Of a stretch of DNA of 64,000 bases, positions 1 through 17,654 are shown piece after piece. The translations under genes and the position numbers were made by a program. This DNA is from an uncultured Chloroflexia bacterium (GTDB lineage Bacteria > Chloroflexota > Limnocylindria > Limnocylindrales > CSP1-4): assembly GCA_963778155.1 (NCBI GenBank), contig CAVZTK010000006.1, positions 791,962-855,961 of the forward strand, given 5' to 3'. The notes beneath the pieces were generated by a model. That model was not told where the DNA came from and did not search any database. It worked only from the letters and a program-made list of their open reading frames with translations. The first letter of the stretch is position 1. The number at the start of each line of letters is the position of its first letter.

Positions 1-727
1 GGCGGCGGCCACGCGGAACCCGGCGAACAGGTACGGCACCGACGTCGGCAGGCGAAGCTGCCAGAGGATCTGTCGGCGCGAGGCGGCGTACGAGCGGAAC
101 AGCTCGATCGCACGCGGGTCGACCGCCCGCAGGCCGCGCAGCGACGCGATCGTGACCGGGAAGAAGGTCAGGTAGGCCGCGACGGCCATGACCGACAGCC
201 AATCGGCCTTGATGGCCACGACGACCAGCGGCGCGATGGCCAGGATCGGCACGGTCTGCGACGCGACGACGTACGGGACCAGCGCCCGCTCGGCCAGCCG
301 CGAGTGGACGAAGAAGACCCCGAGCCCCAGACCCAGCAGCCCGCCGAGGACGAACCCGGCGAACGCCTCGGCGAGGGTGAAGACCGCCTGGCCGAGCGAG
401 GACGACCGCCAGCGGTGGCCCGCCGCGCTGCGCCGGATCGACGAACGCGCGCGCGATGTCCCAGACGTGCGGCAGCGACAGGTCGTCGGCGATCCGCCAG
501 GCGAACGGCGGGACGTGCTCGTAGTCGATCTGCAGCCCGGCGATGGTGGCGTGGATCCGCCAGGGATCGCCGCCCAGCCACTTGGCGGCCTCCCACAGGA
601 CGAGCAGGGCGACGAAGACGACGATCAGGCCGGTGATCCGCTGTCGGCGCGAGCGGGCGGGGCGCGGCGTCGGACGCCGCGATCGGCCGGCCGGACGCCC
701 GGCGCAGGGAGCCGCTGGCGGTCGTCA
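1..727 (-). pseudogene. ABC transporter permease (NitT/TauT/SsuC-type), frame-disrupted, runs off the window start
   Basis: The minus-strand translation needs three frames. The ATG at 727 gives MTTASGSLRR. The next frame gives SRRQRITGLIVVFVALLVLWEAAKWLGGDPW. The third gives SLGQAVFTLAEAFAGFVLGGLLGLGLGVFFVHSRLAERALVPYVVASQTVPILAIAPLVVV...LFRSYAASRRQILWQLRLPTSVPYLFAGFRVAAA, a typical binding-protein-dependent permease. Breaks lie near 640-725 and 400-425. Confidence 0.7.
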
Positions 728-757: not shown

Positions 758-2093
758 TCAGACGACCGCTGCGTCGGCGATCTCGAGCGCGCGATCGATG
801 ACCTCGAAGCCCTCGGCCAGCTGGGCGTCGGTGATGCACAGCGGCGGGTTGGTATGGATCGAATTGTTGGCGAGCATCGTGTACAGGTGGTTCTCGCGCA
901 GGAACTTGCCGATCGCCTTCATCTCGTCCGAGGTCCCGTTGAACGGCGTCAGCGGCGTCCACGGGTCGTGCGACCGGACCAGGTCGATGATCCCGAACAG
1001 CCCGAGGTTGCGAGTCGCGCCGACGCTCGGGTGCCTGGCCGCGAGCCGGCGATGGTGCTCGCGCATGACCGAGTCGAGCCGGGCGGCGTTCTCGATCAGG
1101 CCGTCCTCCTCGTAGACCGAGATCGTGGCCAGCGACGCGGCCAGGCTGACCGGATGGCTGCTGTAGGTCAGTCCGCCGTAGAACATCTGGCTCTCGAACT
1201 TCTCGGCGATGCCGTGCCGCATCGCGACCGCGCCGAGCGGCAGGTACGAGCTGGTCAGGCCCTTGGCCATCGTCATCAGGTCCGGCGTGACGCCCCAGTG
1301 GTCGATGGCGAACCAGCGGCCCGGTCCGGCCGAAGCCGGCCATGACCTCGTCGGCGACCATCAGGATGTCGTGCCGGTCGCAGATCTCGCGCACGCCCTG
1401 GATGTAGCCGTCGGGCGGGATGAGGATGCCGTTCGTGCCGACGATGGTCTCGAGGAAGACCGCGGCGATGCTCTTGGCGCCCTCGTAGCGGATGACGTCC
1501 TCGAGGCCCTGCAGGCTCTCGGCCACGGGTCGGGGTTCGGCCTCTCCCCAACGGTGCGTGTCCGGGTAGCGGACGACGCCGACGATGCCCGGCTCGTTCG
1601 CCCAGCGGCGCGGGTCGCCGGTCAGGGTCATCGCGCCCATCGTCGCACCGTGATAGGCCCGATAGCGGGCCAGGATCTTGTGCCGGCCGGTCACGTGACG
1701 GGCCAGCTTGATGGCGTTCTCGATGGCCTCGGCGCCACCGAGCGTGAAGAAGACCTTGTCCATGTCGCCCGGCAGGATCTCGGCCAGCTTCGCGCCGAGC
1801 CGAGCCCGGATCTCGGTCGTGAACGCCGGCTGGACGAACTGGAGCTTGGTCGCCTGGGCGGTGATCGCGTCGACCACGCGCCGATCGCCGTGGCCGATGT
1901 TGACCGACATCAGCTGGCTGTTGAAGTCGAGGATCCGGTCGCCTTCGGGCGTGTACAGGTAGACCCCTTCGGCGTGATCGATGGCGATCGGGTCGAGGGC
2001 GCCCTGGACCGACCACGAGAAGAACGTGTGCTGCCGCGACAGCGCGACGATCTCCTCGCTGGTCATGGAGCCTGGAGCGGTGGTGATGGCCAT
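758..2093 (-). pseudogene. Class-III (omega-amino acid / beta-alanine:pyruvate type) aminotransferase, one frame break
   Basis: The N-terminal 260 aa of track ORF 168..2093 (SVNIGHGDRRVV, GGAEAIENAIKLAR, ADEVMAGFGRTG) join ORF 758..1276 (MTMAKGLTSSYLPLGAV with the PLP lysine). Deleting one G from the GGG (CCC on the plus strand at 1320-1322) restores [26 protein letters not shown]. Confidence 0.85.
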
Positions 2094-2223
2094 CGGTGTA
2101 CCTCGAGGGGGTGGAGCGAGCGTGTCGGGCGGATGGGTTGTCCGGCTGGATCGGCAGCGACGGCCACCGTCATCGTGTGGTGATTACAGCACAACCGAGA
2201 CGTCGCGGCGCCGTCCGGGACCG

Positions 2224-4105
2224 TCAGCGCAGGAAGCGCCGGCGGACCTCGCCCAGGCTGTCGAAGACGAGCAGGACTCCGAGCGCGAGCAGCCCGGCCA
2301 GGAACAGCTCGCGCAGGTACTCGATGGCCAGGATGAGCGTCGAGATAAGCGCCAGCACGATGGTGATCCGCAGCACCAGCTCCATGATGTTGCGGTCGAA
2401 GAACGATTCGATCACGAGATAGGAGCCGAGCAGCACGACGATCGCGGTCGGCGGAGGCAGGATCCGGAACCAGACGATGACCGCCAGAACGGCGATGAGC
2501 AACCCGACGCTGACCGCGGCCCACGCTTCGCCGAAGGCCCGGCGGCGGGCGACCGCCGGCGGCTCGGGCTCCGAGGCGTGATGGAGGTGGAGCCTCGGAT
2601 CGTCGAGCTGCCCGGCCCGCAGCGCAGCGAGGCGGTCGTGACCGGCGGCGATGGCGGTACCCAACTCGACCGCCTCGGCGCGGATCGCGCCCAGCCGCTC
2701 CTCGCCGGTCCGCAGCTCCTCGGCGCGTTCGGTCCGGTAGCCGGTCAACCCTGCCGTCTGGCGCACCGCGCCAAGCTCGGCATCGAGCTCAGGAAGAGAG
2801 ACGGCAAGGGTGTCCGCCTCGGCCACCAGTGCGGCCCGGGCCGCCGTCAGCTCGGCCAGCCGTGTCTCGAGGACCGCAACCGCTCGTGATGGCGGTGCGA
2901 CCTTCGCGAGGCCCGCGAACCCCAGTGGGTCGTACCACGACTGCCGGACGGAGCCGGTGCGGGTGTACTTCGGGTCCGGCCGGCGCACGTTCGCCTGCGA
3001 ACCGGTCGCCGGTGTCGAGCCCCCACAGCCCGCGGTATCGATCGACCCAGCCGACGTCGTCCCCGATGAGGACCGGCGACCAGGCGACGTCGGCGCCGGG
3101 GCCGACGGTGAGGCCGTCGCCCCGGGCGTAGTCGACGAACGGGACGCTCAGCGCCCGCTTCGCGTTGGCGGCAAGGTCGCCCGGGTCAGGCTGGGCCAGC
3201 GTGTCGCGCCAGAAGTGCCGTACGAGATCGAGCACGCCACGGATCCGTTTCTCGCCGGGAAACGGCAGCAGCATGATGTACTCGCCACGCTCGAGGTAGG
3301 TCGCATGCGAGCCGGCGCCCGGGTAAACGATCGGGTGCCCGTCGATCGTCTCCATCCGTGGATCGTCCCACCGCCGCCGCAGGTCATCGCCCTTCTCGTC
3401 GTGGGCCGCGGCGCAGAACCACGCGGGGCGCAGACTGCCGTCCTCAAGCGTCTCGCACACGACGAAGCACTGCTCAAGATCGGCCTCGTGATCGTTGGCA
3501 CCCTCGAACGTCGAACGCCAGTCGTTCATCGCGTAGAAGAACATGTAGTGCAGCACGACCCACGAGCCCACGCGGACGACCCGGCCGTGGTAGACGACCC
3601 GCGGGTCCTTCTCGCGGATCCGGTCGTACTTCTCCGAGGCGGCCGCGGCCGTGCCGCCCGGAACCCGGCCGCGCAGCAGCAGAGAGGTGACAAGGCCGGC
3701 ATCGACGAGCCGGGCCGCCAGGCCGACCCGGGCGAGCCGGCCGGGTGCCGAGAACCGCTGGTGCTCGGGGCGGGATTGCCAGCGCCGGAGCTCGAGCGCG
3801 TTGAGCGGATGCGGGACGAAGCGGAGGAACTGCGCCTCGCCCGGGGCCGGGTCGCCAACAGCGGCGAGCCGTTCGAGATCGAGCTCGCCGGCTGGGATGG
3901 CCACGCGCGTCTCGCGCAGCGTCGGGCCGGTCAGCAGGTCGCATTCCTCGACATATGGTCCGGTCCCCATCGGGAAGAACAGCTCGCCGTCGGTGAAGCG
4001 CAGGATCGGCTCGTGCCGCGCGAGTAGCTCGAGGTCGGCCGCCGACGCGGCGTCGGTTGCATCGTTGATGCCGGTGGCATCGGGCGCGCCTGCCGTGGCG
4101 GTCAC
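2224..4105 (-). pseudogene. Large hypothetical protein: possible Vps62/DUF946-like N-domain, coiled coil and C-terminal TM helices; one frame break
   Basis: ORFs 2789..4105 and 2224..2988 join as ...DRFAGERAPAGP|KYTRTGSVRQSWYDPLGF once one C is removed from the CCC (plus-strand GGG at 2972-2974). The core reads VVLHYMFFYAMNDW...NDHEADLEQCFVV...HPIVYPGAGSHATY. An Ala/Glu/Leu-rich coiled coil and hydrophobic helices (VSVGLLIAVLAVIVWF, IVLALISTLILAIEYL) follow. The GTG start overlaps the upstream stop (GTGA). Confidence 0.65.
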
Positions 4106-4538
4106 GGTATGGCCTCGCCATGGAGCGCCATCCGGAGGTCACGCTGGTTCAGGTAGAAGACCGCGATGACGTTGAGCAGCATCGAGAGGTAGCGCGGCTT
4201 CGCCGCTCCACCACCAGCCGAGGTCGATGGCGAGGATCACGCCCGACGAGATGATTGCCAGGACCCAGGCCCACTCCTTCCACGCCAGCAGGCCCACGAT
4301 GGTCGCCAGGCTCGCGATGAGGATGCCGATCAGCACGGCGGTCACCACGACAGCGGCCGTCGTCCCCTCCGGGCTATCGGGCAACGGCGACGGTGTCGCG
4401 CAACCACTGGACAACGTCGCCGCCCTCGAACTTCGCGAGCGCGGCGATGATCGACAAGGCGCGGATGGCGCTGAGCACCACGATCACGAGGATCCCGAGC
4501 GGGTACCGCGATCGGACCGAGCGGGCGCCCTGGGTCAT
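4102..4538 (-). pseudogene. Small multi-pass membrane protein (hypothetical), two frame breaks
   Basis: ATG at 4538 gives MTQGARSVRSRYPLGILVIVVLSAIRALSIIAALAKF. The next frame (track ORF 4139..4414) gives TAAVVVTAVLIGILIASLATIVGLLAWKEWAWVLAIISSGVILAIDLGWWW. The third frame gives KPRYLSMLLNVIAVFYLNQRDLRMALHGEAIP, ending in a TGA that overlaps the next gene's GTG. Breaks lie at the GGG at 4379-4381 and near 4200-4206. Confidence 0.5.
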
Positions 4539-4588
4539 GTCCACAGGCTAGCAGGCGGCCACGGCGCCGACCTCGCCCCCCGACGCGC

Positions 4589-5566
4589 TCACCGGGGCAC
4601 GAGCACGGTGACCGCGCCCGGCACCACCTCGACCTCGAGGGTGCCGGCCCGGTGGTGGTCACCGTCGGTCTCGATCGGCTGCTCCGGATCGGCTTCGATC
4701 GTGACCCGGCTGATGGAGCGGCGGATGACGCCGCCCTGGAGCTCGCCGGTCCCGAGCAGCAGCCGGGCAGCGCCCTGCAGGGCGGCGAGTGGGTCCGTCC
4801 CACCGAGGACGATGAGCTCGAGCCGGCCGCTCGACGGATCGATCGGCTGTCGCGGCCCGATCCGCCCGGGGACCAGCTGCCCGGCGTTGGCGACCATCGC
4901 CAGGTAGCCGTCGATCTCCATCGCGTCGCCATCGGCGTCGATCCGGAACCGCGACGGCACGAGCCGCCCCATCTCGCGGATCGCCGCTCCCACATAGGCA
5001 CCGAAGCGGAGCCGGCGCTTCCACTCGGTCTCGGCGGCCGCCATGATCCGCGCGTCGAGCCCCATCCCGCAGGCGACGATGAAGATCCGCTCGGCGGCTT
5101 TGGAGGCCGCGTCCGAGGCCGAGTCCGTGCCGCCGGCCCCGGCCGCCGGCCCCCAGCGGGCACGACCGAGGTCGAGCCGACGCGGCGGGCCGGATCGGAT
5201 GGCGTCGAGCGCCGGGCCGATGCCGCGGATGCCGAGGCTTCCCGCCAGGACGTTCCCCGTCCCGGCCGGGACGATCGCCAGGGGCGCCGAGCCGTGCGCC
5301 ATGGTTTCCGCCGCTTCGCGGACACTGCCGTCACCGCCGATGGCGACGATCAGCGGAGCATCCCCGCCGGCGGCCACGTTCGCCAGTGTCGCGCGCATCG
5401 TCGCCAGCGAGCCGGCCTCGATCACTGGGACGCGACCCGTCCGACCGCGGACGGCAGCCGAGACGGCCGAGACGATCCGGTCGCGCCGGGCCGGATCGAT
5501 CATCCCCGAGGCTCTCGGATTGACCAGGATGAGTGGGTCGCCGGAGGCGATCGGGGTGGGGGTCAC
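4589..5566 (-). CDS. Diacylglycerol kinase catalytic-domain family lipid kinase (YegS/BmrU type)
   Basis: Intact 325-aa ORF with LILVNPRASG, the VAIGGDGSV nucleotide-binding motif and IVPAGTGNVLA. Confidence 0.9.
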   Translation of the reverse strand: MTPTPIASGDPLILVNPRASGMIDPARRDRIVSAVSAAVRGRTGRVPVIEAGSLATMRATLANVAAGGDAPLIVAIGGDGSVREAAETMAHGSAPLAIVPAGTGNVLAGSLGIRGIGPALDAIRSGPPRRLDLGRARWGPAAGAGGTDSASDAASKAAERIFIVACGMGLDARIMAAAETEWKRRLRFGAYVGAAIREMGRLVPSRFRIDADGDAMEIDGYLAMVANAGQLVPGRIGPRQPIDPSSGRLELIVLGGTDPLAALQGAARLLLGTGELQGGVIRRSISRVTIEADPEQPIETDGDHHRAGTLEVEVVPGAVTVLVPR

Positions 5567-5867
5567 GAGCCGATGCTACCGCGCTTCCGCGATGGGAAAT
5601 GGCGTCGCCGACACGATTCTGGCATCCCGTCTAGACTGGCGCTCGCCAACGACCCCCAGGACACACGGGAACCCGGACAACTCGAAAAGACCGCCCCGCT
5701 CGCACGGCTTTTTCCGAGCCCGCACTTTCCGACGATGTCCCAATGCGTCGTTCCTCCCCCCTGAAACCGGCCCAGCCGGTTCGCCATGTCCTTCCGTGCG
5801 CGCCCGACAGGGGCGGACACCGCCCGTCGCGCCCCCCAGCGCGACGCCCTGGCAGGAAGGAGCACCA

Positions 5868-6365
5868 TTGCGCACGCTACATCTGGGCGCACGAGCGTTC
5901 ATCCCGGTCGCCCTCGCGGGGGCCGTCCTCTTCAGCCTTGCACCGTCGACACCGACCGCGGCATCGACCGGAAGCGAGGCGCAGCAGATCATCCGGATCG
6001 CCGAGCGAGAGCTGGGCCATCCGTGGCACTACGGCTCGATGGGACCGTCCCGGTTCGATTGCTCAGGACTCGTCATCTATGCCTACCGGAAGGCCGGCGA
6101 CGGCGCCCGAATCCGAGCCCCCCACCTTCGCTCGGCACGCGCGCTGTACCGCTACTTCAAGGCCCGCGGTCTCGCGAGTCGGACCCACCCGAAGCCCGGT
6201 GATCTCGTGATCTGGGGCTACGGCAGCCATGTCGGGATCTACATCGGTCACGGCAAGGCCATCAGCACGCTGATGAACGGGGTCCGGATCCACGGCGTCC
6301 ACGCGGTCACCGCCCGGTTCACGGCATATCTCCACACGGGGATGTCGACCAAGCCGGCGAGCTGA
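5868..6365 (+). CDS. NlpC/P60 family cell-wall peptidase, secreted
   Basis: GGAAGGAG Shine-Dalgarno, then TTG at 5868, in frame with track ORF 5043..6365. Signal-like LRTLHLGARAFIPVALAGAVLFSLAP. The catalytic Cys context is FDCSGLVIYAYRKAG and the His context is GDLVIWGYGSHVGIYIGHG. Confidence 0.85.
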   Translation: MRTLHLGARAFIPVALAGAVLFSLAPSTPTAASTGSEAQQIIRIAERELGHPWHYGSMGPSRFDCSGLVIYAYRKAGDGARIRAPHLRSARALYRYFKARGLASRTHPKPGDLVIWGYGSHVGIYIGHGKAISTLMNGVRIHGVHAVTARFTAYLHTGMSTKPAS

Positions 6366-6440
6366 CCCAGCCGCGGCTCGCCAGGCGAGCTGCACGCCGC
6401 CTCAGGACCTCGGTCGCCAGCGGGCGGTCGGGGTCCGCGT

Positions 6441-7927
6441 TCACCCGTCGCGACGGGCGACCTTGTCGAGATAGGCGAGGATGGCGTCTGCCGAACGGTC
6501 GATGTCGGCCGGCGTCGTCTGCCAGCCGGACACGGAGATGCGCATCGCCGCCTGACCGGCCCACGTGGTCCCGCCAAGCCAGCACGTTCCGTCACGCTGG
6601 ACGGCGTCGATGACGGCCCTGGTCCTGGAGTCGCCGCGGGAGCCGTCCGCGTCCTCACCCGGTCCGTCGAAACGGACGAGGACCTGGTTGAGCACGACCT
6701 CGTTGAGGATCCTGACGCCGGGTCCCGCGGCGAGCCGATCGGCCATCTGACGGGCCAGCGCGCAGTCGCGCTCGACCAGGTCGATGAGACCCTGGCGCCC
6801 CAACGACCGGAGGGCGGCGAGGACCGTGAAGCCACGCGCTCGGCGGGACGATTCCGGGACCCAGTTGTAGGGATCGCGCTCGGCGCCCTCGGTCTCGACG
6901 TAATAGGCGGCGCCGAGCGTCATCGCCTGGCGATGCGCGGCAGCGTCGCGAACGAAGACGAGACCGGAGTCGTACGGCACGTTGAGCCACTTGTGGGCGT
7001 CGGTCGACCACGAATCCGCGGTCGTCGTGGCCGCGCATGAGGTGGCGCAGCGAGGGGACAGCGGCAGCCCAGATCCCGAACGCCCCGTCGACATGGACCC
7101 AGGCGCCGCGCTCGTGGGCGATCGACACGATCTCGTCGAGCGGATCGAATGCACCGGTGTTCACGTTCCCGGCCTGGGCACAGACGATGACCGGCCCGTC
7201 GATCCCCGCCAGCTCGGCGCGCAGGGCATCGGGGCGCATCCGGCCCTGCTCGTCGGACGCGATCCGCCGGACGCGGTCGCCCTCGCGGCCGAGACCGAGC
7301 ATGCCCAGCGAGGCGGCGATCGTGACGTGGCTGCCCGCGTGCGTGATGACGGTGACCAGCGGCGCGCCCTGCAGACCAAGGCGATCGACGTCCCAGCCGG
7401 CCCGCGCGAGGACCGCCTGGCGGGCTGCCGCGATGGCCGTGAAGTTGGCCATCGTCGCGCCGGTCAGGAACCCGACGCTCGTCCCGGCGGGCAGGCCGAG
7501 CAGGTCGACCAGCCAGCCGGCCGCCACCTCCTCCGCGACCGCGGCGGCCGGCGACGAGACGAACAGCGACGGCGTTCTGGTCCCACGTGCTCGCCAGCCA
7601 GTCGGCGGCCAGGGCGGCCGGCAAGCCCGCCGCCGATGACGAACCCGAAGTAGCGCGGACCGGCGCTCGCGACGAGCCCGGGATCGACCGCGGCGGCCAG
7701 GTCCTCGATGACCGTCGAGCGGATCGGTCGGCTCGTCCGGGAAGCGGTCCGCCGAGCGCCGCACGAAGCGCAGCCAGGTCCGCCGGACGACCGACCGGAC
7801 GCGTCGCGAGCGAGGCGCGATAGGCGATGGCGATCTCGGCCGTGCGGTCGAGCAAGCCGCGGTTCGTCGGGTCATGTCGGGCCTCCCCGACGTGGCGGGC
7901 GGCCGGGAGCGCGACCGCGATGAGCAC
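6441..7927 (-). pseudogene. Group-II PLP-dependent amino-acid decarboxylase, about five frame breaks
   Basis: Pieces are spread over three frames: RTAEIAIAYRASL; DEPTDP; STVIEDLAAAVDPGLVASAGPRYFGFVIGGG; LPAALAADWLASTWDQNA; SLFVSSPAAAVAEEVAAGWLVDLLGLPAG...VHVDGAFGIWAAA; DSWSTDAHKWLNVPYDSGLVFV (PLP-Lys motif). Breaks lie near 7739-7741, about 7700, 7626-7628, about 7570 and 7019-7022. Confidence 0.8.
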
Positions 7928-7955
7928 CTGATGCTACCGTGACCCTGGGCTCGCG

Positions 7956-8363
7956 ATGAGGAGGCTCCCGATGGACCACGCCGCGTTCCGTTCATGGCTC
8001 GATCGCTACGTCGATGCCTGGCGCCTGCTCGACCCGGTTGCCATCGGCGACCTGTTCAGCCCCGACGTCCGCTACGCATTCGATCCGTTCAGCGAGGCCG
8101 TCGTCGGGCGGGCGGGCGTCGTCGCAGCCTGGCTCGCCGACCCCGATGAGCCCGGCTCCTGGGAGGCCGACTACGAGGTGCTCGCGGTCGACGGCGACAC
8201 GTTCGTCGCGCACGGTCGGACGCGCTACCTGACCGACGACCGGTCCGGCATCGATCGCGAGTTCGCCAACATCTTCGTGTGCCGTTTCGACGCCGACGAC
8301 CGCTGCCGCGAGTTCACCGAGTGGTTCATGCGGAGACGCCCCGAGGCGCTGCCCGACGAATAG
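7956..8363 (+). CDS. SnoaL-like / NTF2-fold family protein
   Basis: Intact 135-aa ORF. FRSWLDRYVDAWRLLDPVAIGDLFSPDVRY and the later FVCRFDADDRCREFTEWF are typical of NTF2-like small enzymes. Confidence 0.65.
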   Translation: MRRLPMDHAAFRSWLDRYVDAWRLLDPVAIGDLFSPDVRYAFDPFSEAVVGRAGVVAAWLADPDEPGSWEADYEVLAVDGDTFVAHGRTRYLTDDRSGIDREFANIFVCRFDADDRCREFTEWFMRRRPEALPDE

Positions 8364-8468
8364 CCGCGCGCCGACCGGACGTTCCCTGAGCACACGCGAC
8401 GGCCGCGCCCGCGGTGTACCCTCGCCCTCCTTCGACCCACGCACGTCCCGATGGAGGTCACGCGCGAT

Positions 8469-9321
8469 ATGGCCCGAACCGTCCGTGGCGCGCTCGTCCA
8501 GGCGACCTGGACCGGCGACAAGGAATCGATGATCCAGAAGCACGAGGGCTACGCCCACGAGGCTGCCAAGCAGGGCGCCCAGTTCATCCTCTTCCAGGAG
8601 CTGTTCTACGGGCCGTACTTCTGCCAGGTCCAGGACGCCCAGTACTACAGCTACACCGAGCTCATCCCGGACGGCCCGACCACCAAGCGGATGCAGGACC
8701 TCGCCAGGCAGACCGGCATGGTGATCGTCGCCCCGATGTACGAGGAGGACGACAAGGCCAGCGGGATCTACTACAACACCGCGGCCGTCATCGACCCCGA
8801 CGGCACGTACCTCGGCAAGTACCGCAAGACGCACATCCCCCACGTCAAGGGCTTCTGGGAGAAGTTCTACTTCCGCCCCGGGAACCTCGGCTATCCCGTC
8901 TTCGAGACGGCCGTCGGCAAGATCGGCGTCTACATCTGCTATGACCGGCACTTCCCCGAGGGCGCCCGGGCGCTCGGGCCTCAACGGCGCCGAGATCGTG
9001 CTGATCCCGAGCGCGACCTCGCGCGGCCTGTCCGAGTACCTGTGGCGCATCGAGCAGGTCAGCCACGCCGTCGCCAACGGCTACTACGTCGGCACCATCA
9101 ACCGCGTCGGCATCGAGGCCGACATCGGCGACGACGACTTCTACGGCCAGAGCTACTTCGTCGACCCGCGCGGCCAGTTCGTCGGCGACCTCGGCAGCGC
9201 CCACGACGAGGAGCTGCTGGTGCGCGATCTCGATCTCGATCGGATCCTCGAGGTCCGCAACACCTGGCAGTTCTTCCGGGACCGCCGGCCGGACGCGTAC
9301 GCGGACCTCACGCGACCCTAG
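8469..9321 (+). pseudogene. Beta-ureidopropionase / N-carbamoyl-amide hydrolase (nitrilase superfamily), one frame break
   Basis: The catalytic Glu (ILFQELF), Lys (YRKTHIP) and Cys (VYICYDRHFPEG) lie in ORF 8451..9464. The C-terminal part (GLNGAEIVLIPSATS...FFRDRRPDAY) lies in ORF 8941..9321. Removing one G from the GGG at 8976-8978 joins them as ARALGLNGAEIV. Confidence 0.85.
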
Positions 9322-9406
9322 GACACGCGCTACCATCCCCCCGGCTCGGCCGTCTGGAGGAGGACGGCCGAGCCGCCTCGATTCGATGGGGCGGGAGGCA
9401 AGACCC

Positions 9407-10414
9407 ATGCAGTTCGGCTTCACGCTCAAGCCCGACCACACGCCGGAACGCACGCTGGCGCTGACCCGCCGAGCCGAGGCCGCCGGGTTCGACTACGGCT
9501 GGCTGTTCGACTCGCACGTGCTGTGGCGCGACCCCTATCCGCTGCTGACGCTGATGGCCGGCGTGACCGAACGGATGCGGCTCGGGACGTGCGTCACCAA
9601 CCCCGGTACCCGCGAGCCGACGGTCACGGCGTCGCTGCTCGCCACGCTCGACGAGATCAGCGGCGGACGGATGGACCTCGGCATCGGCCGCGGCGATTCG
9701 GCCAGGCGCGTCCTGGGCAAGCCGCCGATCACGATGGCGAACACCGAGGAGGCGATCGGCGTCATCAGGGCCCTCGTCGCCGGCGAGCAGATCACCTACG
9801 AGGGGACAGAGCTCGTCTTCCCGTGGACGACCGGGTGGACGCTCCCCGTCTGGGTCGCCGGCTACGGCCCGATGGCGCTGGCGATGACCGGTCGCGTCGC
9901 CGACGGCCTGATCCTCCAGCTGGCCGATCCCGACCTCATCCGCTGGTTCGTCGGCCAGGCGCGCGAGGCCGCGACCGCTGCCGGACGCGATCCGGCATCG
10001 ATCAGGGTCCAGGCCGCGGCGGCCGCGTACGTCGGTCCGCGCGAGCTCGGGCGTGAGCGGGCGCGCTGGTTCCCGGCGCTCGTCTCGAACCACGTCGTGG
10101 ACCTGGTCAACAAGTACCCGCGCGAGCAGCTCCCGGCCAGCCTGACCGGCTACGTCCGCGACCGCGAGGGCTATGACTACCACCACCACGCCGAGGTCGG
10201 CTCCTCGAATGCGGCCTTCGTCGAGGACGAGGTGACCGACCGGTTCTGCGTCCTCGGACCGGCCGAGGAGCACGTCACCAAGCTCCAGGAGCTCGCAGCG
10301 GCCGGTGTGGACCAGTTCAACGTCTACCTCATGAACGGCGACGAAGAGGACCAGCTCGATGCGTACGGCCGCGACGTGATCCCGGTCCTGCGCGATGTCG
10401 CCGCGACGTCCTAG
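9407..10414 (+). CDS. Luciferase-like monooxygenase (LLM) class oxidoreductase, probably F420-dependent
   Basis: GGGAGG SD before the ATG at 9407. MQFGFTLKP...AEAAGFDYGWLFDSHVLWRDPYPLL...CVTNPGTREPTVTASLLATLDEISGGRMDLGIGRGDS is the LLM TIM-barrel signature. It sits between the beta-ureidopropionase and the dihydropyrimidinase. Confidence 0.8.
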   Translation: MQFGFTLKPDHTPERTLALTRRAEAAGFDYGWLFDSHVLWRDPYPLLTLMAGVTERMRLGTCVTNPGTREPTVTASLLATLDEISGGRMDLGIGRGDSARRVLGKPPITMANTEEAIGVIRALVAGEQITYEGTELVFPWTTGWTLPVWVAGYGPMALAMTGRVADGLILQLADPDLIRWFVGQAREAATAAGRDPASIRVQAAAAAYVGPRELGRERARWFPALVSNHVVDLVNKYPREQLPASLTGYVRDREGYDYHHHAEVGSSNAAFVEDEVTDRFCVLGPAEEHVTKLQELAAAGVDQFNVYLMNGDEEDQLDAYGRDVIPVLRDVAATS

Positions 10415-10529
10415 GCCCAAGGTCAGGCTGGTCAAGCGACCCACACGTCGCGCGATGCTGCCGTTGACGGCGCTGCGGCGCCCGCGACGCGGTCGAGCGC
10501 GAGAGACCGCCCAGCCAGGAGGACCGACG

Positions 10530-10712
10530 ATGAGGCTGTTCCGATATGGGCGCGATCCGTTCTGGGATGACGGAGTCGGCGCGCGCCAGGCCCATCATCG
10601 GGAACGTATCGAGGGCCTCATCGCCTTCGCCCTCGCCATCGGCGCCTGCGGCCTGACGATCGCGCTCTGGCTGCGGACCCTCGCCATGTCGATCGGGTTC
10701 GGGCCGGGCTGA
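10530..10712 (+). CDS. Small hypothetical membrane protein (60 aa)
   Basis: AGGAGG lies 6 nt before the ATG at 10530. There is one hydrophobic helix, LIAFALAIGACGLTIALWL. No homology was recognised. Confidence 0.35.
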   Translation: MRLFRYGRDPFWDDGVGARQAHHRERIEGLIAFALAIGACGLTIALWLRTLAMSIGFGPG

Positions 10713-10845
10713 CCGATCCGTCGCTCGCGGGCTGACCTCGGGCCGCGAGCACCCCGCATCCCTCCCCGGCCCTGCGCTCGCGACGGCCCATCGCCTACGA
10801 TGGCCGTCCTGACCGGTTCGTGGCCGACCGCGCGAGGAGGGACCG

Positions 10846-12243
10846 ATGCGCACGCTCATCACCAACGGGACGATCGTCACCGCCGACGGGAGCTACGGCG
10901 CCGACGTCCTGATCGACGGCGAGACCATCGCCCTGCTCGGCCGCGACCTGGCCGCGGGTGGCGTGGAGGCCGACGAGACCATCGACGCGTCGGGCAGGTA
11001 CGTGATCCCCGGCGGCATCGACGTCCACACCCACATGGAGCTGCCGTTCGGCGGCACGTTCGCCAAGGACACCTTCGAGACGGGGACGCGCGCGGCAGCG
11101 TTCGGCGGGACGACGTCGATCGTCGACTTCGCGGTCCAGTCGAAGGGCCAGACGCTGCGCCAGGGCCTCGACGCCTGGCACGCCAAGGCCGAGGGCAACG
11201 CCGTCACCGACTACGGCTTCCACATGATCATGAGCGACGTCAACGACGGCACGCTGGCCGAGATGGATGGCCTGGTCGCCGAGGGCGTGCCCGACTTCAA
11301 GCTGTTCACCGCGTACCCGGGCGTCTTCTACAGCGACGACGGCGCGATCTTCCGGGCGATGCAGCAGACCGCCAGGAACGGCGGGCTGATCATGATGCAC
11401 GCCGAGAACGGGATGGCCATCGACGTCGTCGCGGCCCAGACCATCGAGGCCGGCATGACCGACCCGATCGGCCATGGGATCGCCCGCAAGCCGATCTTCG
11501 AAGGCGAGGCGACCAACCGGGTGATCCGCCTGGCGGAGGCGGCCGAGGCACCGGTCTACATCGTCCACCTCTCGGCGCGGGACGCGCTCGAGACCGTGCG
11601 CGACGCCCGCGATCGCGGCGGCCGGGTGTTCGCGGAGACCTGCCCGCAGTACCTGTTCCTGTCGCTCGATGACCTGGGCCACGGGTTCGAGGGCGCCAAG
11701 TTCGTGTGCTCGCCACCGTTGCGCACGAAGGACCACTGGGACGAGCTGTGGGCGGGGCTGGTCAAGGACGACCTGCAGGTCGTCTCGACCGACCACTGCC
11801 CGTTCGACTTCCACGGCCAGAAGGAGCTCGGCGAGGGCGACTTCCGCAAGATCCCGAACGGTCTTCCCGGCGTCGAGGACCGGCTCGACCTGCTCCACGA
11901 CGGCGGTGTCGTGGCCGGCCGGATCACGAAGGAGCGCTGGGTGGAGCTCGCGTCGACGGCGCCCGCGAAGCTGTTCGGGATGTATCCGCAGAAGGGCGCC
12001 ATCGCGATCGGCTCCGACGCCGACCTGGTGATCTACGACCCGAACCGCTCGCACACGATCTCGGCAGCGACCCATCACATGGACGTCGACTATTCGTGCT
12101 ACGAGGGTCGGGCCGTCCGGGGCGGCAGCGACATCGTCTTCTCGCGCGGCTCGGTGGTCGTGCGCGACGGGCAGTTCACCGGGCGCAAGGGCGCCGGACG
12201 GTTCCTCAAGCGCGCTCCGGCCGATTTCGCCCGGATGGCCTGA
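10846..12243 (+). CDS. hydA: Dihydropyrimidinase (D-hydantoinase)
   Basis: Intact 465 aa with GGIDVHTHMELPFGGT metal ligands, the FKLFTAYPG carboxylated-Lys region, IMMHAENG, VYIVHLS and VVSTDHCPF. Confidence 0.92.
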   Translation: MRTLITNGTIVTADGSYGADVLIDGETIALLGRDLAAGGVEADETIDASGRYVIPGGIDVHTHMELPFGGTFAKDTFETGTRAAAFGGTTSIVDFAVQSKGQTLRQGLDAWHAKAEGNAVTDYGFHMIMSDVNDGTLAEMDGLVAEGVPDFKLFTAYPGVFYSDDGAIFRAMQQTARNGGLIMMHAENGMAIDVVAAQTIEAGMTDPIGHGIARKPIFEGEATNRVIRLAEAAEAPVYIVHLSARDALETVRDARDRGGRVFAETCPQYLFLSLDDLGHGFEGAKFVCSPPLRTKDHWDELWAGLVKDDLQVVSTDHCPFDFHGQKELGEGDFRKIPNGLPGVEDRLDLLHDGGVVAGRITKERWVELASTAPAKLFGMYPQKGAIAIGSDADLVIYDPNRSHTISAATHHMDVDYSCYEGRAVRGGSDIVFSRGSVVVRDGQFTGRKGAGRFLKRAPADFARMA

Positions 12244-12562
12244 CCGCGGCCGCGCCGATGCGGTCCAACGGCGCCGGATCCGTGGTGGTCCTCGACGGCG
12301 GCCTCGCGACCAGAGTCGTGCGTGCGGCATCACCGCCGGTCGAGACCGCGACCGGACTTCGCTTGCAATGACGTGTCACCCGGCGCCACCGTTTCGCAAC
12401 GGTTCCGGTGCACCCCGGCACCACACGTCGCCCCGGGCGCACATCCTCGAATTGACCTCACCCGGTCGCGGCAGGTACGTTCCATGTATTCCCAGAGGCC
12501 GCCCAAGAGCGCCACCCCGACCTTGGCAGCGCTCGGCCTCGACATCGGAGGAGGAGCGCCCG

Positions 12563-15500
12563 TGAGACGGACCCCCGTCGCCCTTGCCACTCTCTGCCTG
12601 TTGCTCGGGCAGACGATCTTCGCCGGAGCCGTGTCCGGTGCAGATCCGTCGAAGTTCACGGCCACCCAGCTGAACCCGGTGTCCACGTTCAGCACGCCCA
12701 AGTCAACGTCCGGCGCGATCGCCAAGAGCGACCCCAAGCTGCTCGGTCGCCATGACGCGACGCCGGTCAACGTGGTCATCAAGTACGACTTCGACGCCTC
12801 GGCGACCTACACGGGTGGCGTTAATGGCCTCGCGGCGACCAGCCCGCGGGTGACCGGCAAGTCGCTCAAGGCGAACGCGGCCGCGGTCAAGGCATATGAC
12901 GCCTATACCGCCAAGCTGACCAAGGGCATCACCGCGGCCGCCCAGAAGGCCGCGCCGTCGCTCAAGGTCAACGAGTCCTTCGGGACCGCGTATGGTGGCG
13001 TCTCCGGACGCGTCACCGCCAACCAGATCGCCGCCCTGCTCAAGGTGCCCGGCGTCGTGGCGGTCCAGTCGGACACGCTCGAGCAGCCGCTCGACGACAA
13101 CACCGGGTTCATCGGCGCAACGGCCGTGTGGCCGTCGCTCGGCGGCTCGGCCACGGCCGGCAGCAACGTGATCTTCGGCGACATCGACACCGGTGTCTGG
13201 CCCGAGCATCCCATGCTTGCCCCGGGCAGCCTGAGCGCACCCGCGGGTGGGCTGAAGGCGTGCCAGTTCGGCGACGGCACCGACACCGCCGATCTCGGTC
13301 CGACCTTCACCTGCAACAACAAGCTCATCGGCGCCTACGCCAAGATGGCCAACTACATGGCCAATACCGGGGCCGGCGCGAACGAGTTCTGCAACAACAC
13401 CAGCAAGCAGTGCTCCGCCCGCGACCCCGAGGGCCACGGCACCCACACCACCACCACGGCCGCAGGTGACTGCGTCACCACGGCAATGCTGTACGGCGTC
13501 GAGCGCGGTCCCGTGTGCGGCATCGCCCCGGGCGCCCACGTCATCGAATATCGCGTCTGCGCCGCGGCAGGCTGCTTCGGCTCCGACTCCGTGTCGGCGG
13601 TCAACCAGGCCATCGCCGACGGCGTCAACGTCATCAACTACTCGATCTCCGGTGGCGGCAGCCCGTACACCGACGCAGTCGAGCTCGCGTTCCTCGACGC
13701 GGTCCACGCCGGGATCTCGGTCAACGCCTCGGCCGGCAACAGCGGCCCGACCGCCGGCACCTCCGATCATGGCGGCCCGTGGGTGACCACGGTCGGCGCC
13801 TCGACCGGCCCGCGCAGCTTCTCCTCGACCCTGCATCTCACCGCCGACGGCGGCGCGACACTGGACATCGCCGGCGTCACGCTGACCAACGGCATCACCA
13901 CGGCGACACCCGTCGTCATGGCGGCGACCCTCGCCGGTGAGGACGCACTCTGCCAATCGACGCTCGCTGCGGGCACGGCGGCCGGCAAGATCGTCGTCTG
14001 CAACCGCGGCGTCAACGGCCGGATCGACAAGGGCCGTCGAGTCGCCGCGGGCGGAGCCGCGGGGATGATCCTCACCAACAACTCGGCCGCGGTCACCGAC
14101 CTCGAGTCCGACAACCACTACCTGCCGGCGATCCAGGTGCAGTTCAACTCGAACGCCGTGGCCACCTTCGTGACCAGCCACAGCAACGTGATGGCCACAT
14201 GGGCGCAGGGCACCGCGCAGCCGGCCCAGGCCGACGTCATGGCCTCGTTCTCGTCGCGCGGACCGACCGGCGACTGGATCAAGCCGGACGTGACCGCGCC
14301 CGGCGTGCAGGTCCTCGCGGGCACGACGCCGCAGCCTGATCAGACGACGGCGGACAACGGTCCGACCGGCAACCTGTACATGGCCATCGCCGGGACATCG
14401 ATGTCCAGCCCACACTCGGCCGGCGTGTCGATCCTCGTGAAGGCCGCCCATCCGAGCTGGACCCCGGAGGAGATCAAGTCCGCCCTCATGACGTCGTCGG
14501 TCCAGGCGGTCGTCAAGGAGGACGGGGTCACCCCCGCCGACCCGTTCGACATGGGCGCCGGCTCGATCCGGGCCGACCGCGCGGTCGACCCGACCCTGGT
14601 GTTCGACGAGAACTTCGCCGACTTCAACGCGGCCGGGGCTGACCCGCTCAACCGGATCAACCTGAACATCCCGAGCATCGATGCGACGACGATGACCGGC
14701 GAGGTCACCACGACCCGCACCGCGATCAACGTGTCCGGCAAGGCCCAGGACCTCAAGGTCTCGGTCCAGTCCCCGGACAACACCCAGATCATCGTGTCGG
14801 GCCAGAAGCCGAACGGCAAGGGTGTCCTGAGCGCTGACACCAAGCTCCACGCGGACAAGAACAAGCCCCTCACCTTCTGGGTGCGGATCAGCGCTCCGAC
14901 GGCCGACCCCGGTCAGTACTTCGGCCGGATCACCCTCACCCCGAAGAACGGCACGCCGGTCACCATCCCGGTGGCCTTCGTCAAGAAGCAGGGCGCGGTC
15001 GCGTTGACCAACACCTGCGCGCCATCGAGCATCACCGCGAAGACCGGCCTCAGTCACTGCACGGTGACGGCGACCAACTTCGCCCAGACGGCCGCGAACG
15101 TGGACGTCAAGGTGGCCAACCTTGACAACGTCAAGGGCCTCAAGTACTCGAACATCGCAGCCCCGGCGACCTCGATCGGACATGGCGATGGCGTCACGTG
15201 GAGCGGAGCGCTCTCCGGTGCCATCCCGCCCCAGATCAACGGCTTCACCGCCACCGAGGGACCGGCTGGTGGCTATCTGCCACTGTCCGCCTTGGGAGTC
15301 ACCCCGGCTCACCGGTATCGGCGATGACACGATGACCAACTTCGGCGTCCCGACGCCGTTCTTCTACGGCGGGGAGTCGTACACATCGATCGGCGTCGGC
15401 TCGAACGGCTTCGTCGTTCTTGGCGGTGGTACCGCGGCCGATGCGACCCCCACGCCACAGTCCTTCCCGAACGTCAATCGCCCGAACAACGTGATCGCCC

Positions 15501-16009
15501 TGTTCTGGACCGATCTGAACCCGGCCGCGGGCGGAGCGATCCGGGTCGCGACCTTGTCCGATGGCCCTCCCGGTCCGACGACGACGAGCTGGCTGGTCGT
15601 CGACTACGGGGCGGTCAAGAACTTCAGCAACGCCATCACCCATACCGGCGAGCTCTGGTTCCAACTCGCTTCGGGGGCAGCCGGTACCGATGCCTCGAGT
15701 GAGCAGACCACCATGACCTTCGGCGCCGCCAACGCGTCCGCCGGCGATCCTGGTATCCCGGGTGCGTTGAAGGTCAACTGGGGTGCCGAGAACCGCGACG
15801 GCACCAGTGGCAAGAACTTTGCATCCGCCCCGGCCGACAACACCGAATGGTCGGTCGACACGTCGCCGCCCGCCCCCGGCGGATCAGCGACTCTGCACTT
15901 CGATGTCTCCGCCAACAAGGCCGGCACGTACAGCTCGGTGGCCTCGATGACCTCCGATGTCACGCCCGGCACGACCCAGGTCGTCAAGACGATCACGGTC
16001 AGACCCTGA
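12563..16009 (+). pseudogene. Secreted subtilisin-family (S8) serine peptidase with PA-like insert and long C-terminal extension, one frame break
   Basis: GGAGGAGGAG SD, then GTG at 12563 and the signal VRRTPVALATLCLLLGQTIFAGAVSG. The catalytic residues are Asp (FGDIDTGVWPEHP), His (HGTHTTTTAAG) and Ser (GTSMSSPHSAG). Track ORFs 12322..15327 and 15122..16009 join as LSALGVTP|LTGIGDDTMTNFG after removing one base in the CCCCGG at 15302-15307. Confidence 0.85.
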
Positions 16010-16032
16010 CCGTCGTCCCGATCGGGAATCAC

Positions 16033-16060
16033 GAAGGGCCGCCCGCAAGGGCGGCCCTTC
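16033..16060. terminator. GC-rich hairpin between convergent genes (bidirectional terminator candidate)
   Basis: GAAGGGCCGCCC-GCAA-GGGCGGCCCTTC forms a perfect 12-bp stem with a GNRA-like loop. It lies between the protease stop (16009) and the mmsA stop (16116). Confidence 0.6.
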
Positions 16061-16115
16061 CGTTCGTCCGCGTGCCTGTGTCTGCCGGCCGGATGCCGGT
16101 CGCCAGGCCCCGGGC

Positions 16116-17654
16116 TTACCGTGTGCGCGGGAACCCCAGGTCGATCTTGGAGGTCCCCGGATCCGGCCAGCGCGAGGTCACGATCTTGGCCCGCGTGTAG
16201 AACTGGACGCCCTCGGGGCCGTACATGTGCAGGTCGCCGAACAGCGAGTTCTTCCAGCCACCGAAGCTGTAATACGCGACCGGGACCGGGATCGGCACGT
16301 TGATGCCGACCATCCCGGCGTTGACCTCGAACTGGAACTGCCGGGCGGCACCACCGTCGCGTGTGAAGATGGCCGTCCCGTTGCCGTACGGGTTGTCGTT
16401 CACGAGGCGAACCGCCTCGTCGTAGGTCTTGACCCGCATCACGGTCAGGACCGGGCCGAAGATCTCGTCGCGATACGCGTCCATCGCCGGCGTGACGTGG
16501 TCGATCAGCGACACGCCGAGGAAGAAGCCGTCCGACTCGTCGTAGAGCGGGTGGTCGCGGCCGTCGGTCACGAGCGTGGCTCCCTGGGCCGGGCCACTGT
16601 CGAGGTACGAGGCGACCTTGTCGCGGTGCTGCTTCGTGACGAGTGGCCCCATCTCGGACGACGGGTCGCTGCCGGGTCCGACCGTGATCTTGGGCAGCCG
16701 TGCCTTGATCGCCTCGACCAGCGGGTCGGCCACGTCGCCGACCGCCACGACCGTCGCGATCGCCATGCACCGCTCGCCGGCCGAGCCGTAGCCGGCCGAC
16801 ACGGCGGCGTCGGCGGCCATGTCGATGTCGGCGTCGGGCAGCACGATCATGTGGTTCTTCGCGCCGCCGAGCGCCTGTACGCGCTTGCCGGCCTTGGTCC
16901 CGGTCTCGTAGATGTAGCGGGCGATCGGCGTCGAGCCCACGAACGAGACGGCCTCGATGTCCGGGTGCTCGAGGATCGCGTCGACCGCCACCTTGTCGCC
17001 GTGGACGACGTTGAAGACGCCATCCGGGACGCCCGCGTCGCGCAGGAGCTCGGCCAGGAAGTTGGCCGCCGACGGATCCTTCTCCGAGGGCTTGAGCACG
17101 AACGTGTTGCCCGCCGCGATCGCCGTCGCGAACATCCACATCGGCACCATCGCCGGGAAGTTGAACGGGGTGATGCCGGCGACCACGCCGAGCGGCTGGC
17201 GGATCTGGTAGACGTCCACGCCGCCCGAGACCTGCTCGGAGAAGCCGCCCTTGAGCAGGCTCGGGATGCCGCACGCGAACTCGAGGTTCTCGAGGCCGCG
17301 GGCGATCTCGCCGAGCGCGTCCGACGGGACCTTGCCGTGCTCCGCGGTCAGCAGCGCGGCGATCTCCGTACGATGCGCCTCGACGCCGTTCCGGATGCGG
17401 AACATGACGTCGGTCCGCTTCGAGATCGACGTCGCCCGCCAGGCCGGGAAGGCTGCCTTCGCCGCCGCGACCGCCGCATCGACCTCGGCGACCGAGGCGA
17501 AGTCCACGTGCCTGGTGAGCTGGCCCGTCGCCGGATCGAACACGGGGCCTTCGCGCCCCGACGTCCCGGCGACCAGATGACCGCCGATCCAGTGGCTGAC
17601 GCGAGCCGGCGCCGGGCTCTCGGTTCGGGCGTTGGGTTCTGCGACCTGTGTCAT
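16116..17654 (-). CDS. mmsA: CoA-acylating methylmalonate/malonate-semialdehyde dehydrogenase
   Basis: Intact 512 aa with FNFPAMVPMWMF, VLKPSEKDP, the catalytic Cys in SAGERCMA, and PIPVPVAYYSFGGWKNSLFGD, which is typical of the MmsA subfamily. Confidence 0.92.
   Translation of the reverse strand: MTQVAEPNARTESPAPARVSHWIGGHLVAGTSGREGPVFDPATGQLTRHVDFASVAEVDAAVAAAKAAFPAWRATSISKRTDVMFRIRNGVEAHRTEIAALLTAEHGKVPSDALGEIARGLENLEFACGIPSLLKGGFSEQVSGGVDVYQIRQPLGVVAGITPFNFPAMVPMWMFATAIAAGNTFVLKPSEKDPSAANFLAELLRDAGVPDGVFNVVHGDKVAVDAILEHPDIEAVSFVGSTPIARYIYETGTKAGKRVQALGGAKNHMIVLPDADIDMAADAAVSAGYGSAGERCMAIATVVAVGDVADPLVEAIKARLPKITVGPGSDPSSEMGPLVTKQHRDKVASYLDSGPAQGATLVTDGRDHPLYDESDGFFLGVSLIDHVTPAMDAYRDEIFGPVLTVMRVKTYDEAVRLVNDNPYGNGTAIFTRDGGAARQFQFEVNAGMVGINVPIPVPVAYYSFGGWKNSLFGDLHMYGPEGVQFYTRAKIVTSRWPDPGTSKIDLGFPRTR

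Follow-up and report, generated by a model that had tools for sequence, protein, structure and literature searches.

Known enzymes at the head of the reductive pyrimidine pathway include PydA, PreT/PreA of Escherichia coli, and the ferredoxin-dependent PydA of clostridia (EC 1.3.1.1 / 1.3.1.2). PydA and PreTA combine a flavin mononucleotide (FMN) barrel like that of dihydroorotate dehydrogenase (DHOD; PF01180) with iron-sulfur (Fe-S) clusters and, usually, a subunit for flavin adenine dinucleotide and NAD(P)H. To our knowledge, the first enzyme of this pathway has so far always been a DHOD-like flavoenzyme, an iron-sulfur one in PreT/PreA and in dihydropyrimidine dehydrogenase (DPD). We describe a different candidate, encoded in a 64,000-nucleotide stretch of DNA from an uncultured Chloroflexia bacterium of soil (hereafter the window; positions 791962-855961 of contig C6, CAVZTK010000006.1, in assembly GCA_963778155.1). 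There, a luciferase-like (LLM-class) oxidoreductase gene lies between genes for a candidate carbamoylase and dihydropyrimidinase, and its product would take the same place in the pathway, ahead of both. The LLM protein is probably an F420H2-dependent uracil/thymine reductase that feeds the reductive pyrimidine pathway. It would catalyze the same reaction as PydA and PreTA with a single PF00296 TIM barrel, with F420H2 as predicted donor, and it has no homology to them. What would be new is the first enzyme, an unrelated variant; the pathway itself is known.

Both the proposed chemistry and the proposed replacement have precedents. Reduction of C5=C6 in a uracil ring has been shown, by genetic and nuclear magnetic resonance evidence, for SSGG-03002 and NpsU, putative F420/FMN oxidoreductases for uridyl-peptide antibiotics; the genetic evidence includes mureidomycin biosynthesis (PMC10714638). 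The likeness to the LLM is one of reaction, not of sequence comparison. SSGG-03002 and NpsU act on a uridyl-peptide in secondary metabolism, and their authors detected no activity in vitro (PMC10714638). The replacement has a parallel in uric-acid clusters of Chloroflexota, which lack YgfK and UacX (PF01180 enzyme) and carry an F420-type LLM (PF00296) instead (PMC12507026). This is the same kind of exchange, but it concerns a purine pathway (SsnA, HyuA, YgeW, YgeX), the LLM subfamily is not stated, and the role is likewise putative.

The LLM protein matches TIGR03842 (F420_CPS_4043) over the entire model (positions 1-329 of 329), with 432.1 bits against a cut-off of 295.45; a six-frame search of the genome with the same model gave 431.7 bits. 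PF00296 (Bac_luciferase) covers residues 8-303 (215.5 bits). This assignment substantiates an earlier reading made from the sequence alone, hereafter the sequence-only reading, which had judged the protein to be of the F420 branch. TIGR03842, the "LLM class F420-dependent oxidoreductase", is a hypothetical equivalog, that is, a family without assigned function. The family is very large: among 8,000 candidates scored, all but four reached E <= 1e-30, and the best 120 were 82-95% identical. The next-best NCBIfam models describe Mer (154.2 and 137.9 bits; cut-offs 276 for NF002619 and 348.7 for TIGR03555), followed mostly by other F420 LLM families. A Pfam scan found no PF01180 match in the LLM, and the protein is not a member of the PreA/PydA family (NF006183). 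It could be an analogue of PreA and PydA, not a homologue.

Mer, the F420H2-dependent 5,10-methylenetetrahydromethanopterin reductase, is the closest solved relative (PDB 1f07, 1z69, 8qpl; 129 bits over the full length) and shares the motifs VTNP and GIG.GD. The nearest solved structures by sequence are six Mer sequences, then F420-dependent hydroxymycolic acid dehydrogenase, Adf, and FGD. An AlphaFold (AF2) model built from a 30-sequence alignment (pLDDT 88.8, pTM 0.88) shows alternating strands and helices, a TIM barrel. In Foldseek, its top 30 PDB neighbors are all F420 enzymes, Mer having TM scores of 0.78-0.83, and FMN luciferases come only later. By both sequence and fold, then, F420 enzymes (Mer; then FGD, Adf, and FGD2) rank above any FMN luciferase, and the LLM is predicted to be an F420H2 reductase like Mer. 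Mer itself was considered and ruled out: the LLM falls below both Mer cut-offs and has Thr in place of Mer Glu6, the residue mutated in PDB entry 8qq8. (The N-termini read MKFGIEF in Mer and MQFGFTL in the LLM, and a 12-sequence family alignment has no Glu in that column.) Moreover, unlike Mer, the LLM is bacterial and stands in a pyrimidine-catabolic gene context, not a methanopterin one. Residues invariant in the family include VTNP..R (63-69), GIGRGDS (92-98), NH (228-229), and R253/Y256-D257-Y258/H261. The last group falls in the least confidently modeled segment, residues 230-270, which could by its position form a substrate lid.

RutA, another member of the LLM superfamily, is an FMN- and O2-dependent enzyme that opens the uracil ring oxidatively in the Rut pathway. 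It is exceedingly improbable that the window protein is a monooxygenase of this type, opening or hydroxylating the pyrimidine ring. RutA is known to be LLM-class and to act on uracil, and Pfam sees only the general Bac_luciferase domain in the window protein. However, F420 LLM families make up all of the leading NCBIfam matches and the majority of the 25 listed; the RutA model is not among these 25 best, and FMN families appear only as weak hits lower in the list. Structural neighbors 1-30, all F420 enzymes, point the same way, as does a cof-fno operon in Rhodobacterales that ends with the LLM gene (see below). In addition, neither a flavin reductase nor Rut genes were seen nearby, and a dihydropyrimidinase would be useless after oxidative ring opening.

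The company kept by the gene is informative. Within the window, the LLM belongs to a tight one-strand core (SnoaL-like protein, CN-hydrolase, LLM, dihydropyrimidinase), with an aminotransferase gene and mmsA as looser satellites. The window proteins were used to search 80 loci around LLM homologues in each lineage, and linkage was counted only where the flanks to either side of the LLM were complete (at least 7 kb each; in Streptomyces, at least 6 kb). In Limnocylindria (LLM 77-94% identical to that of the window), the order is CN-hydrolase, LLM, then dihydropyrimidinase; dihydropyrimidinase and CN-hydrolase are each present in 47/47 loci, the aminotransferase in 43/47, and MmsA in 26/47. In Acidimicrobiia (45-48%), the genes for CN-hydrolase, dihydropyrimidinase, MmsA, and LLM are tightly packed on one strand, with CN-hydrolase in all 22 loci, dihydropyrimidinase in 19, and MmsA in 17. 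Streptomyces (80 species, many cultured; LLM about 50% identical) has the order CN-hydrolase, aminotransferase, dihydropyrimidinase, LLM, with partner counts of 67, 63, and 68, respectively, among 70 loci. In Gaiellales (45-51%), dihydropyrimidinase (38/49) is divergent from a row of M20 carbamoylase (TIGR01879; 44/49), LLM, and ABC transporter genes, and CN-hydrolase is found in 0/49.

Thus, Gaiellales have exchanged the CN-hydrolase for a non-homologous M20 carbamoylase while keeping the LLM. MmsA is missing from most Gaiellales and all Streptomyces flanks, so that the tightest partners across lineages are dihydropyrimidinase and carbamoylase, not MmsA. The partnership of LLM and dihydropyrimidinase survives both changes in gene order and the carbamoylase swap, as expected if all three proteins serve one pathway. 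With the Rhodobacterales described below, the pairing occurs in five lineages: Chloroflexota, three actinobacterial classes, and Rhodobacterales. What the sequence-only reading saw in one window is therefore a very strong linkage of the LLM to hydA and carbamoylase genes across all of these groups.

An annotated operon on a plasmid of Leisingera caerulea is especially telling. It reads cofG-cofH-cofD-cofC-cofE-npdG, the last of these encoding the NADPH-dependent F420 reductase Fno, and ends with the TIGR03842 gene. Divergent from it lie pntA-pntB, an aminotransferase gene, a Zn-dependent hydrolase gene, hydA (dihydropyrimidinase), and a gene for an NCS1 nucleobase:cation symporter; the LLM operon thus adjoins genes for nucleobase import and for the three pathway steps that follow. 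The cof-fno-LLM operon recurs in Paracoccus alcaliphilus, where an ABC transporter comes next. This gene arrangement is the strongest evidence that the LLM would use F420. It suggests a flow of electrons that starts at NADH, passes to NADPH through PntAB and to F420H2 through Fno, and reaches the substrate by way of the LLM.

The cassette also bears on the direction of the reaction. The LLM superfamily includes both F420 reductases (Mer) and F420-reducing dehydrogenases (FGD, Adf), and both are among the structural neighbors. The LLM might accordingly be imagined as a dehydrogenase that oxidizes a pathway intermediate or product, supplying F420H2 and not starting the pathway. We consider this very unlikely. 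The LLM is nearest Mer, which a published classification groups with the reductases fPKR and LxmJ (PMC8518648), and co-transcription with Fno, beside pntAB, points from NADPH to F420H2 to substrate in Rhodobacterales. Moreover, an oxidative LLM would leave the first pathway step unexplained.

In the proposed reduction, F420H2 would bind within the LLM TIM barrel, and its C5 would deliver a hydride to the pyrimidine at C6, within an enone-like C5=C6-C4=O system. An acid of the protein would then protonate C5, giving 5,6-dihydrouracil or 5,6-dihydrothymine. F420 transfers electrons strictly as hydride, and its potential is slightly lower than that of NADPH (reviewed in PMC8498797). The proposed transfer would parallel the reduced-FMN chemistry of DPD and DHOD, and that of F420H2 reductases acting on activated double bonds. 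One example is the F420H2-dependent LxmJ, whose substrate is dehydroalanine and which falls with Mer in the reductase clade (PMC8518648). Dihydropyrimidinase would next open the ring, and the CN-hydrolase would release beta-alanine or beta-aminoisobutyrate along with CO2 and NH3. The class-III aminotransferase would form malonate or methylmalonate semialdehyde, and MmsA would yield acetyl-CoA or propionyl-CoA. Speculatively, the gain over PreTA would be a one-subunit enzyme without Fe-S clusters.

The substrate, the reaction direction, and the cofactor actually used are all inferred from gene context and relatedness, and the substrate invites another proposal. The LLM could serve the same module at another redox step or on another ring: a cyclic amide such as a 5-substituted or unsaturated hydantoin, barbiturate, orotate, or a modified pyrimidine; or malonate semialdehyde, reduced to 3-hydroxypropionate. 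The sequence-only reading had itself raised a different cyclic amide as its alternative. Dihydropyrimidinases are also D-hydantoinases, hydantoin utilization employs carbamoylases of the types seen in these clusters, and the CN-hydrolase is nearest N-carbamoylputrescine amidohydrolase. Nevertheless, the beta-alanine-type aminotransferase and MmsA in several lineages, together with the NCS1 symporter in Leisingera, fit uracil and thymine breakdown through beta-alanine and beta-aminoisobutyrate. In addition, the LLM tracks dihydropyrimidinase and carbamoylase, not MmsA, and with another step or ring the pathway would still be without a first enzyme. Substrates of this kind are thus unlikely, and uracil or thymine remains the favored assignment.

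A first enzyme of the canonical type was sought directly. The sequence-only reading had seen no PydA/PreTA-type gene; indeed, no DHO_dh/PreA-type gene was found in the window. Across the host genome, PF01180 retrieved only a frameshifted PyrD and a DHOD-like gene (PRK07565), no PreA-type protein, and a PreA search gave no match at E <= 1e-40. The search was extended to 16 further genomes with the cluster (Streptomyces, 5; Acidimicrobiia, 4; Gaiellales/Thermoleophilia, 4; Limnocylindria, 3), where the best PreA match scored 123 bits, a PyrD-level value, with the cut-off at 335. A canonical DPD at another locus would have undercut the proposal, but none was found in the host genome or, above the PreA cut-off, in these 16. 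Together with the family assignment and the conserved linkage, this comparative evidence supports the suggestion of the sequence-only reading that the LLM would supply the first step.

The PRK07565 gene was rejected as a hidden DPD because it adjoins a pyruvate:ferredoxin oxidoreductase gene, not pyrimidine genes. (Its product, a "dihydroorotate dehydrogenase-like protein" at 413 bits, is encoded directly 3' of the 1177-residue oxidoreductase, at C6:357247-361871.) A second dihydropyrimidinase-like gene (C21:888142-889551) was likewise dismissed as a pyrimidine locus, as it sits in a purine-catabolism cluster. That region, C21:881231-889551, holds the dihydropyrimidinase/allantoinase-like gene (TIGR02033, 421 bits) with genes for xanthine dehydrogenase subunits, a uricase/OHCU-decarboxylase-like open reading frame (ORF), and a malate synthase-like gene.

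A survey of 151 Chloroflexota genomes places the locus in its phylum. (The p-values ignore relatedness among genomes, which are not phylogenetically independent, and are descriptive only.) The TIGR03842 LLM is present in 26/151. Dihydropyrimidinase occurs in all 26 of these and in 36 of the 125 others (Fisher p = 2e-12), often on the LLM contig and within a few kb. For cofD, the corresponding counts are 26/26 and 67/125 (p = 8e-7), and two other Chloroflexota families have cofD in the neighborhood of the LLM cluster, at a distance of 4-8 kb from its dihydropyrimidinase gene (genomes with cofD near dihydropyrimidinase: G034, G090, G054, G009, G022, G045, G099, G135, and G120). PreA exceeds its cut-off in 3/151 genomes; G070 and G043, which lack the LLM, have a PreA gene beside the dihydropyrimidinase gene instead.

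Ten of the Chloroflexota genomes with a dihydropyrimidinase homologue and no LLM were examined. Near that homologue they have no carbamoylase, aminotransferase, or MmsA gene. They were rejected as counter-examples because their homologues lack the pathway partners, one of them lying in a ygeW/ygeX-type cluster. In the latter (locus L345, G122:C18, about 4522-10910), genes for carbamate kinase, a YgeW-like carbamoyltransferase, an amidohydrolase, a dihydropyrimidinase-like HyuA, and a pyridoxal-phosphate (PLP) enzyme stand in a row, and no TIGR03842 gene is near the dihydropyrimidinase-like gene. This cluster looks like the recently described reductive uric-acid pathway (compare PMC12507026).

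The genes of the region are listed in Table 1. The gene map was drawn from GC3 frame plots, six-frame translations, and Pfam and NCBIfam scans. These profile scans recovered, at the same coordinates, the CN-hydrolase, LLM, dihydropyrimidinase, aminotransferase, and mmsA genes named by the sequence-only reading, and also the ABC permease that it had placed at the window edge.

Table 1. Genes at the start of the window, with coordinates in window positions.
Feature	Coordinates	Strand	Profile matches and remarks
ABC-transporter permease, runs off window start	1-673	-	PF00528; one frame break at ~395
Class-III (omega/beta-alanine-type) aminotransferase, PRK06062-like	758-2093	-	PF00202 + PRK06062, two frames
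Two unassigned ORFs	2227-4108	-	
DAG-kinase-family protein	4592-5572	-	
NlpC/P60	ends ~6362	+	
PLP decarboxylase	6456-7927	-	several frame breaks
SnoaL-like (NTF2-fold) protein	7947-8363	+	PF12680
CN-hydrolase, candidate N-carbamoyl-beta-alanine amidohydrolase (beta-ureidopropionase)	8469-9321	+	PF00795, two frames
LLM-class F420-dependent oxidoreductase, TIGR03842 family, 335 aa	9407-10414	+	TIGR03842, PF00296; intact
Dihydropyrimidinase (D-hydantoinase), 465 aa	10846-12243	+	TIGR02033; intact
S8 protease, 1001 aa	12322-15327	+	
MmsA, CoA-acylating malonate/methylmalonate-semialdehyde dehydrogenase, 512 aa	16116-17654	-	TIGR01722; intact

Two partners score well above their model cut-offs: dihydropyrimidinase reaches 582 bits on the TIGR02033 equivalog (cut-off 393), aligned to model positions 2-454 of 454, and MmsA matches TIGR01722 at 729 bits (cut-off 448). 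The aminotransferase and the CN-hydrolase are each read in two frames, one profile segment per frame: PF00202/PRK06062 positions 14-269 and 267-453 for the former, and PF00795 positions 3-159 and 162-255 for the latter. An intact CN-hydrolase orthologue (locus L011) best matches N-carbamoylputrescine amidohydrolase (205 bits), followed by fly and human beta-ureidopropionases (176 and 169 bits); it falls below the aguB cut-off (266 versus 410 bits).

The SnoaL-like protein is a lineage-specific companion: its homologue occurs in 42/80 Limnocylindria loci, directly 5' of the CN-hydrolase gene in most of the positions printed, and was not found in Acidimicrobiia or Gaiellales loci. The spacer between LLM and dihydropyrimidinase was also considered as the seat of a constant extra partner. 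This was ruled out because the spacer genes of relatives are variable and unrelated: a long membrane protein, a peroxiredoxin-like ORF, an aminotransferase, or a VOC-like ORF. In several relatives (L014, 10929-13304; L024, 11066-13294), the inserted gene encodes about 750-790 residues; the product apparently crosses the membrane several times and has another domain at its C-terminus, and by eye it looks UbiA-like plus glycosyltransferase-like.

Beyond mmsA, the window holds an lgt-like gene and genes for malate dehydrogenase and PEP carboxykinase. An Rfam scan of window positions 1-22000 gave no match, nor did a promoter/terminator scan of positions 7600-12600.

Several points weigh against a pyrimidine reductase in this organism. 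The first concern gene layout and annotation. About 6 kb of unrelated genes part the aminotransferase gene from the core, and the S8 protease gene sits between those for dihydropyrimidinase and MmsA. (The protease is a secreted-type subtilase with S8, PA, and fn3 domains; it occupies this place in only 1/80 related loci, L011, and is therefore a recent insertion into the region.) No curated model assigns the CN-hydrolase to beta-ureidopropionase, and the literature searched contained no biochemical or genetic study of any TIGR03842 member.

Others concern PreA. Its rarity in Chloroflexota makes its absence weak evidence within the phylum. Furthermore, in G072, of the same family as the host, the LLM cluster coexists with a PreA gene (614 bits, in an open frame of 915 residues). 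PreA-like genes of 288-308 bits, without the C-terminal Fe-S part, were seen in two relatives (the loci, with that of the G072 PreA, are G072:C8:33596-34792, G072:C98, and G081:C65).

The supply of F420 is a further concern. The sequence-only reading had made F420 biosynthesis genes a test of its proposal, and the outcome is divided. The tail-building genes cofD, cofC, and cofE are present, each above cut-off and clustered at C6:614185-616552, directly after the gene for another F420-type LLM (TIGR03560-like; region C6:613338-616552). Synthase genes for the FO headgroup (cofG/cofH/fbiC), on the other hand, were not found in the host assembly, in a same-genus genome (94% complete), or in any class-level relative sampled. 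FO synthase is present in only 2 of the 26 LLM-bearing Chloroflexota genomes and absent from 24, and the search does detect it elsewhere in the phylum. The host has no FO synthase, so its F420 would have to be built from FO taken up from outside, presumably made by other organisms. In the 151 Chloroflexota genomes, cofD occurs in 93 but cofH above cut-off in only 18; reliance on FO from other producers may be common in the phylum.

Finally, three genes of the cluster region carry frame breaks, one frame change each: the CN-hydrolase at about 8975-8979, the aminotransferase at about 1319, and the permease at about 395. Each is a single extra base beside a short run of G or C. At the CN-hydrolase site, the window reads GCTCGGGCC, whereas Illumina-based relatives read GCT-GGGCC, one base fewer; the aminotransferase likewise has one extra base relative to such relatives. 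Short-read soil contigs spanning 8976-8979 also lack the extra base, and one of these is near-identical to the window (229 nucleotides, 6 mismatches). The public read runs are of relatives only (word share at most 0.25) and bear on the hydrolase frameshift through this one contig only. Frame changes are spread across the genome, once or several times per gene, and affect cofD and pyrD as well (C6:614224-615133; C6:965393-966220). Most likely, the hydrolase and aminotransferase breaks are assembly errors, and these genes are not pseudogenes.

The host genome (3.55 Mb in 27 contigs, G+C about 70%) is nearest to metagenome-assembled genomes of uncultured Limnocylindria (Chloroflexota). Its CheckM completeness is only 65.6%, and a same-genus relative has 3.4 Mb. 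The genome-wide frame breaks fit long-read indel errors better than missing DNA, and the assembly looks error-rich, not incomplete.

Could the cluster nonetheless be decaying in this organism, with real frame breaks and an LLM deprived of its cofactor for want of FO synthase? The three frame changes, the low completeness value, and the lack of cofH/fbiC from the assembly would all be accounted for. Even so, decay has little to recommend it. The hydrolase and aminotransferase extra bases are absent from Illumina-based relatives, and the former from the near-identical contig; and breaks in cofD and other housekeeping-type genes are what long-read indel errors would produce. Moreover, the genes for LLM, dihydropyrimidinase, and MmsA have unbroken frames and share 80-95% identity with those of relatives, and cofC, cofD, and cofE are kept across the class.

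Selengut and Haft reportedly defined F420 LLM families in 2010. Full-text literature searches turned up no report of a uracil reductase or dihydropyrimidine dehydrogenase that depends on F420; an earlier remark on the gene context (Selengut and Haft 2010, Ney et al. 2017) may exist. A 2021 review of F420 lists no pyrimidine reductase, states that no F420H2-dependent reductase had been studied outside Actinobacteria, and calls the reason why Proteobacteria and Chloroflexi make F420 an open question (PMC8498797).

A broader proposal is offered more tentatively, as one that may well prove too wide. TIGR03842 proteins might be single-subunit, Fe-S-free F420H2:uracil/thymine oxidoreductases, a new, unrelated class of dihydropyrimidine dehydrogenase. 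Pyrimidine catabolism might be a main physiological reason why Rhodobacterales keep a cofGHDCE-fno cassette and why many Chloroflexota and Actinomycetota maintain F420, and Limnocylindria might run the pathway on scavenged deazaflavin.

If correct, these ideas would give the first reaction of a textbook pathway a new, deazaflavin-dependent, and unrelated enzyme; would assign a function to the very large TIGR03842 family; and would provide a job for F420 outside Actinobacteria. They are directly testable, as cultured strains of Streptomyces, Leisingera, and Paracoccus carry the genes. Metabolic reconstructions of abundant soil Chloroflexota and Actinomycetota now rate this pyrimidine pathway incomplete. 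If the proposal holds, pyrimidine recycling by Limnocylindria in soil would hinge on cross-feeding of a cofactor precursor.

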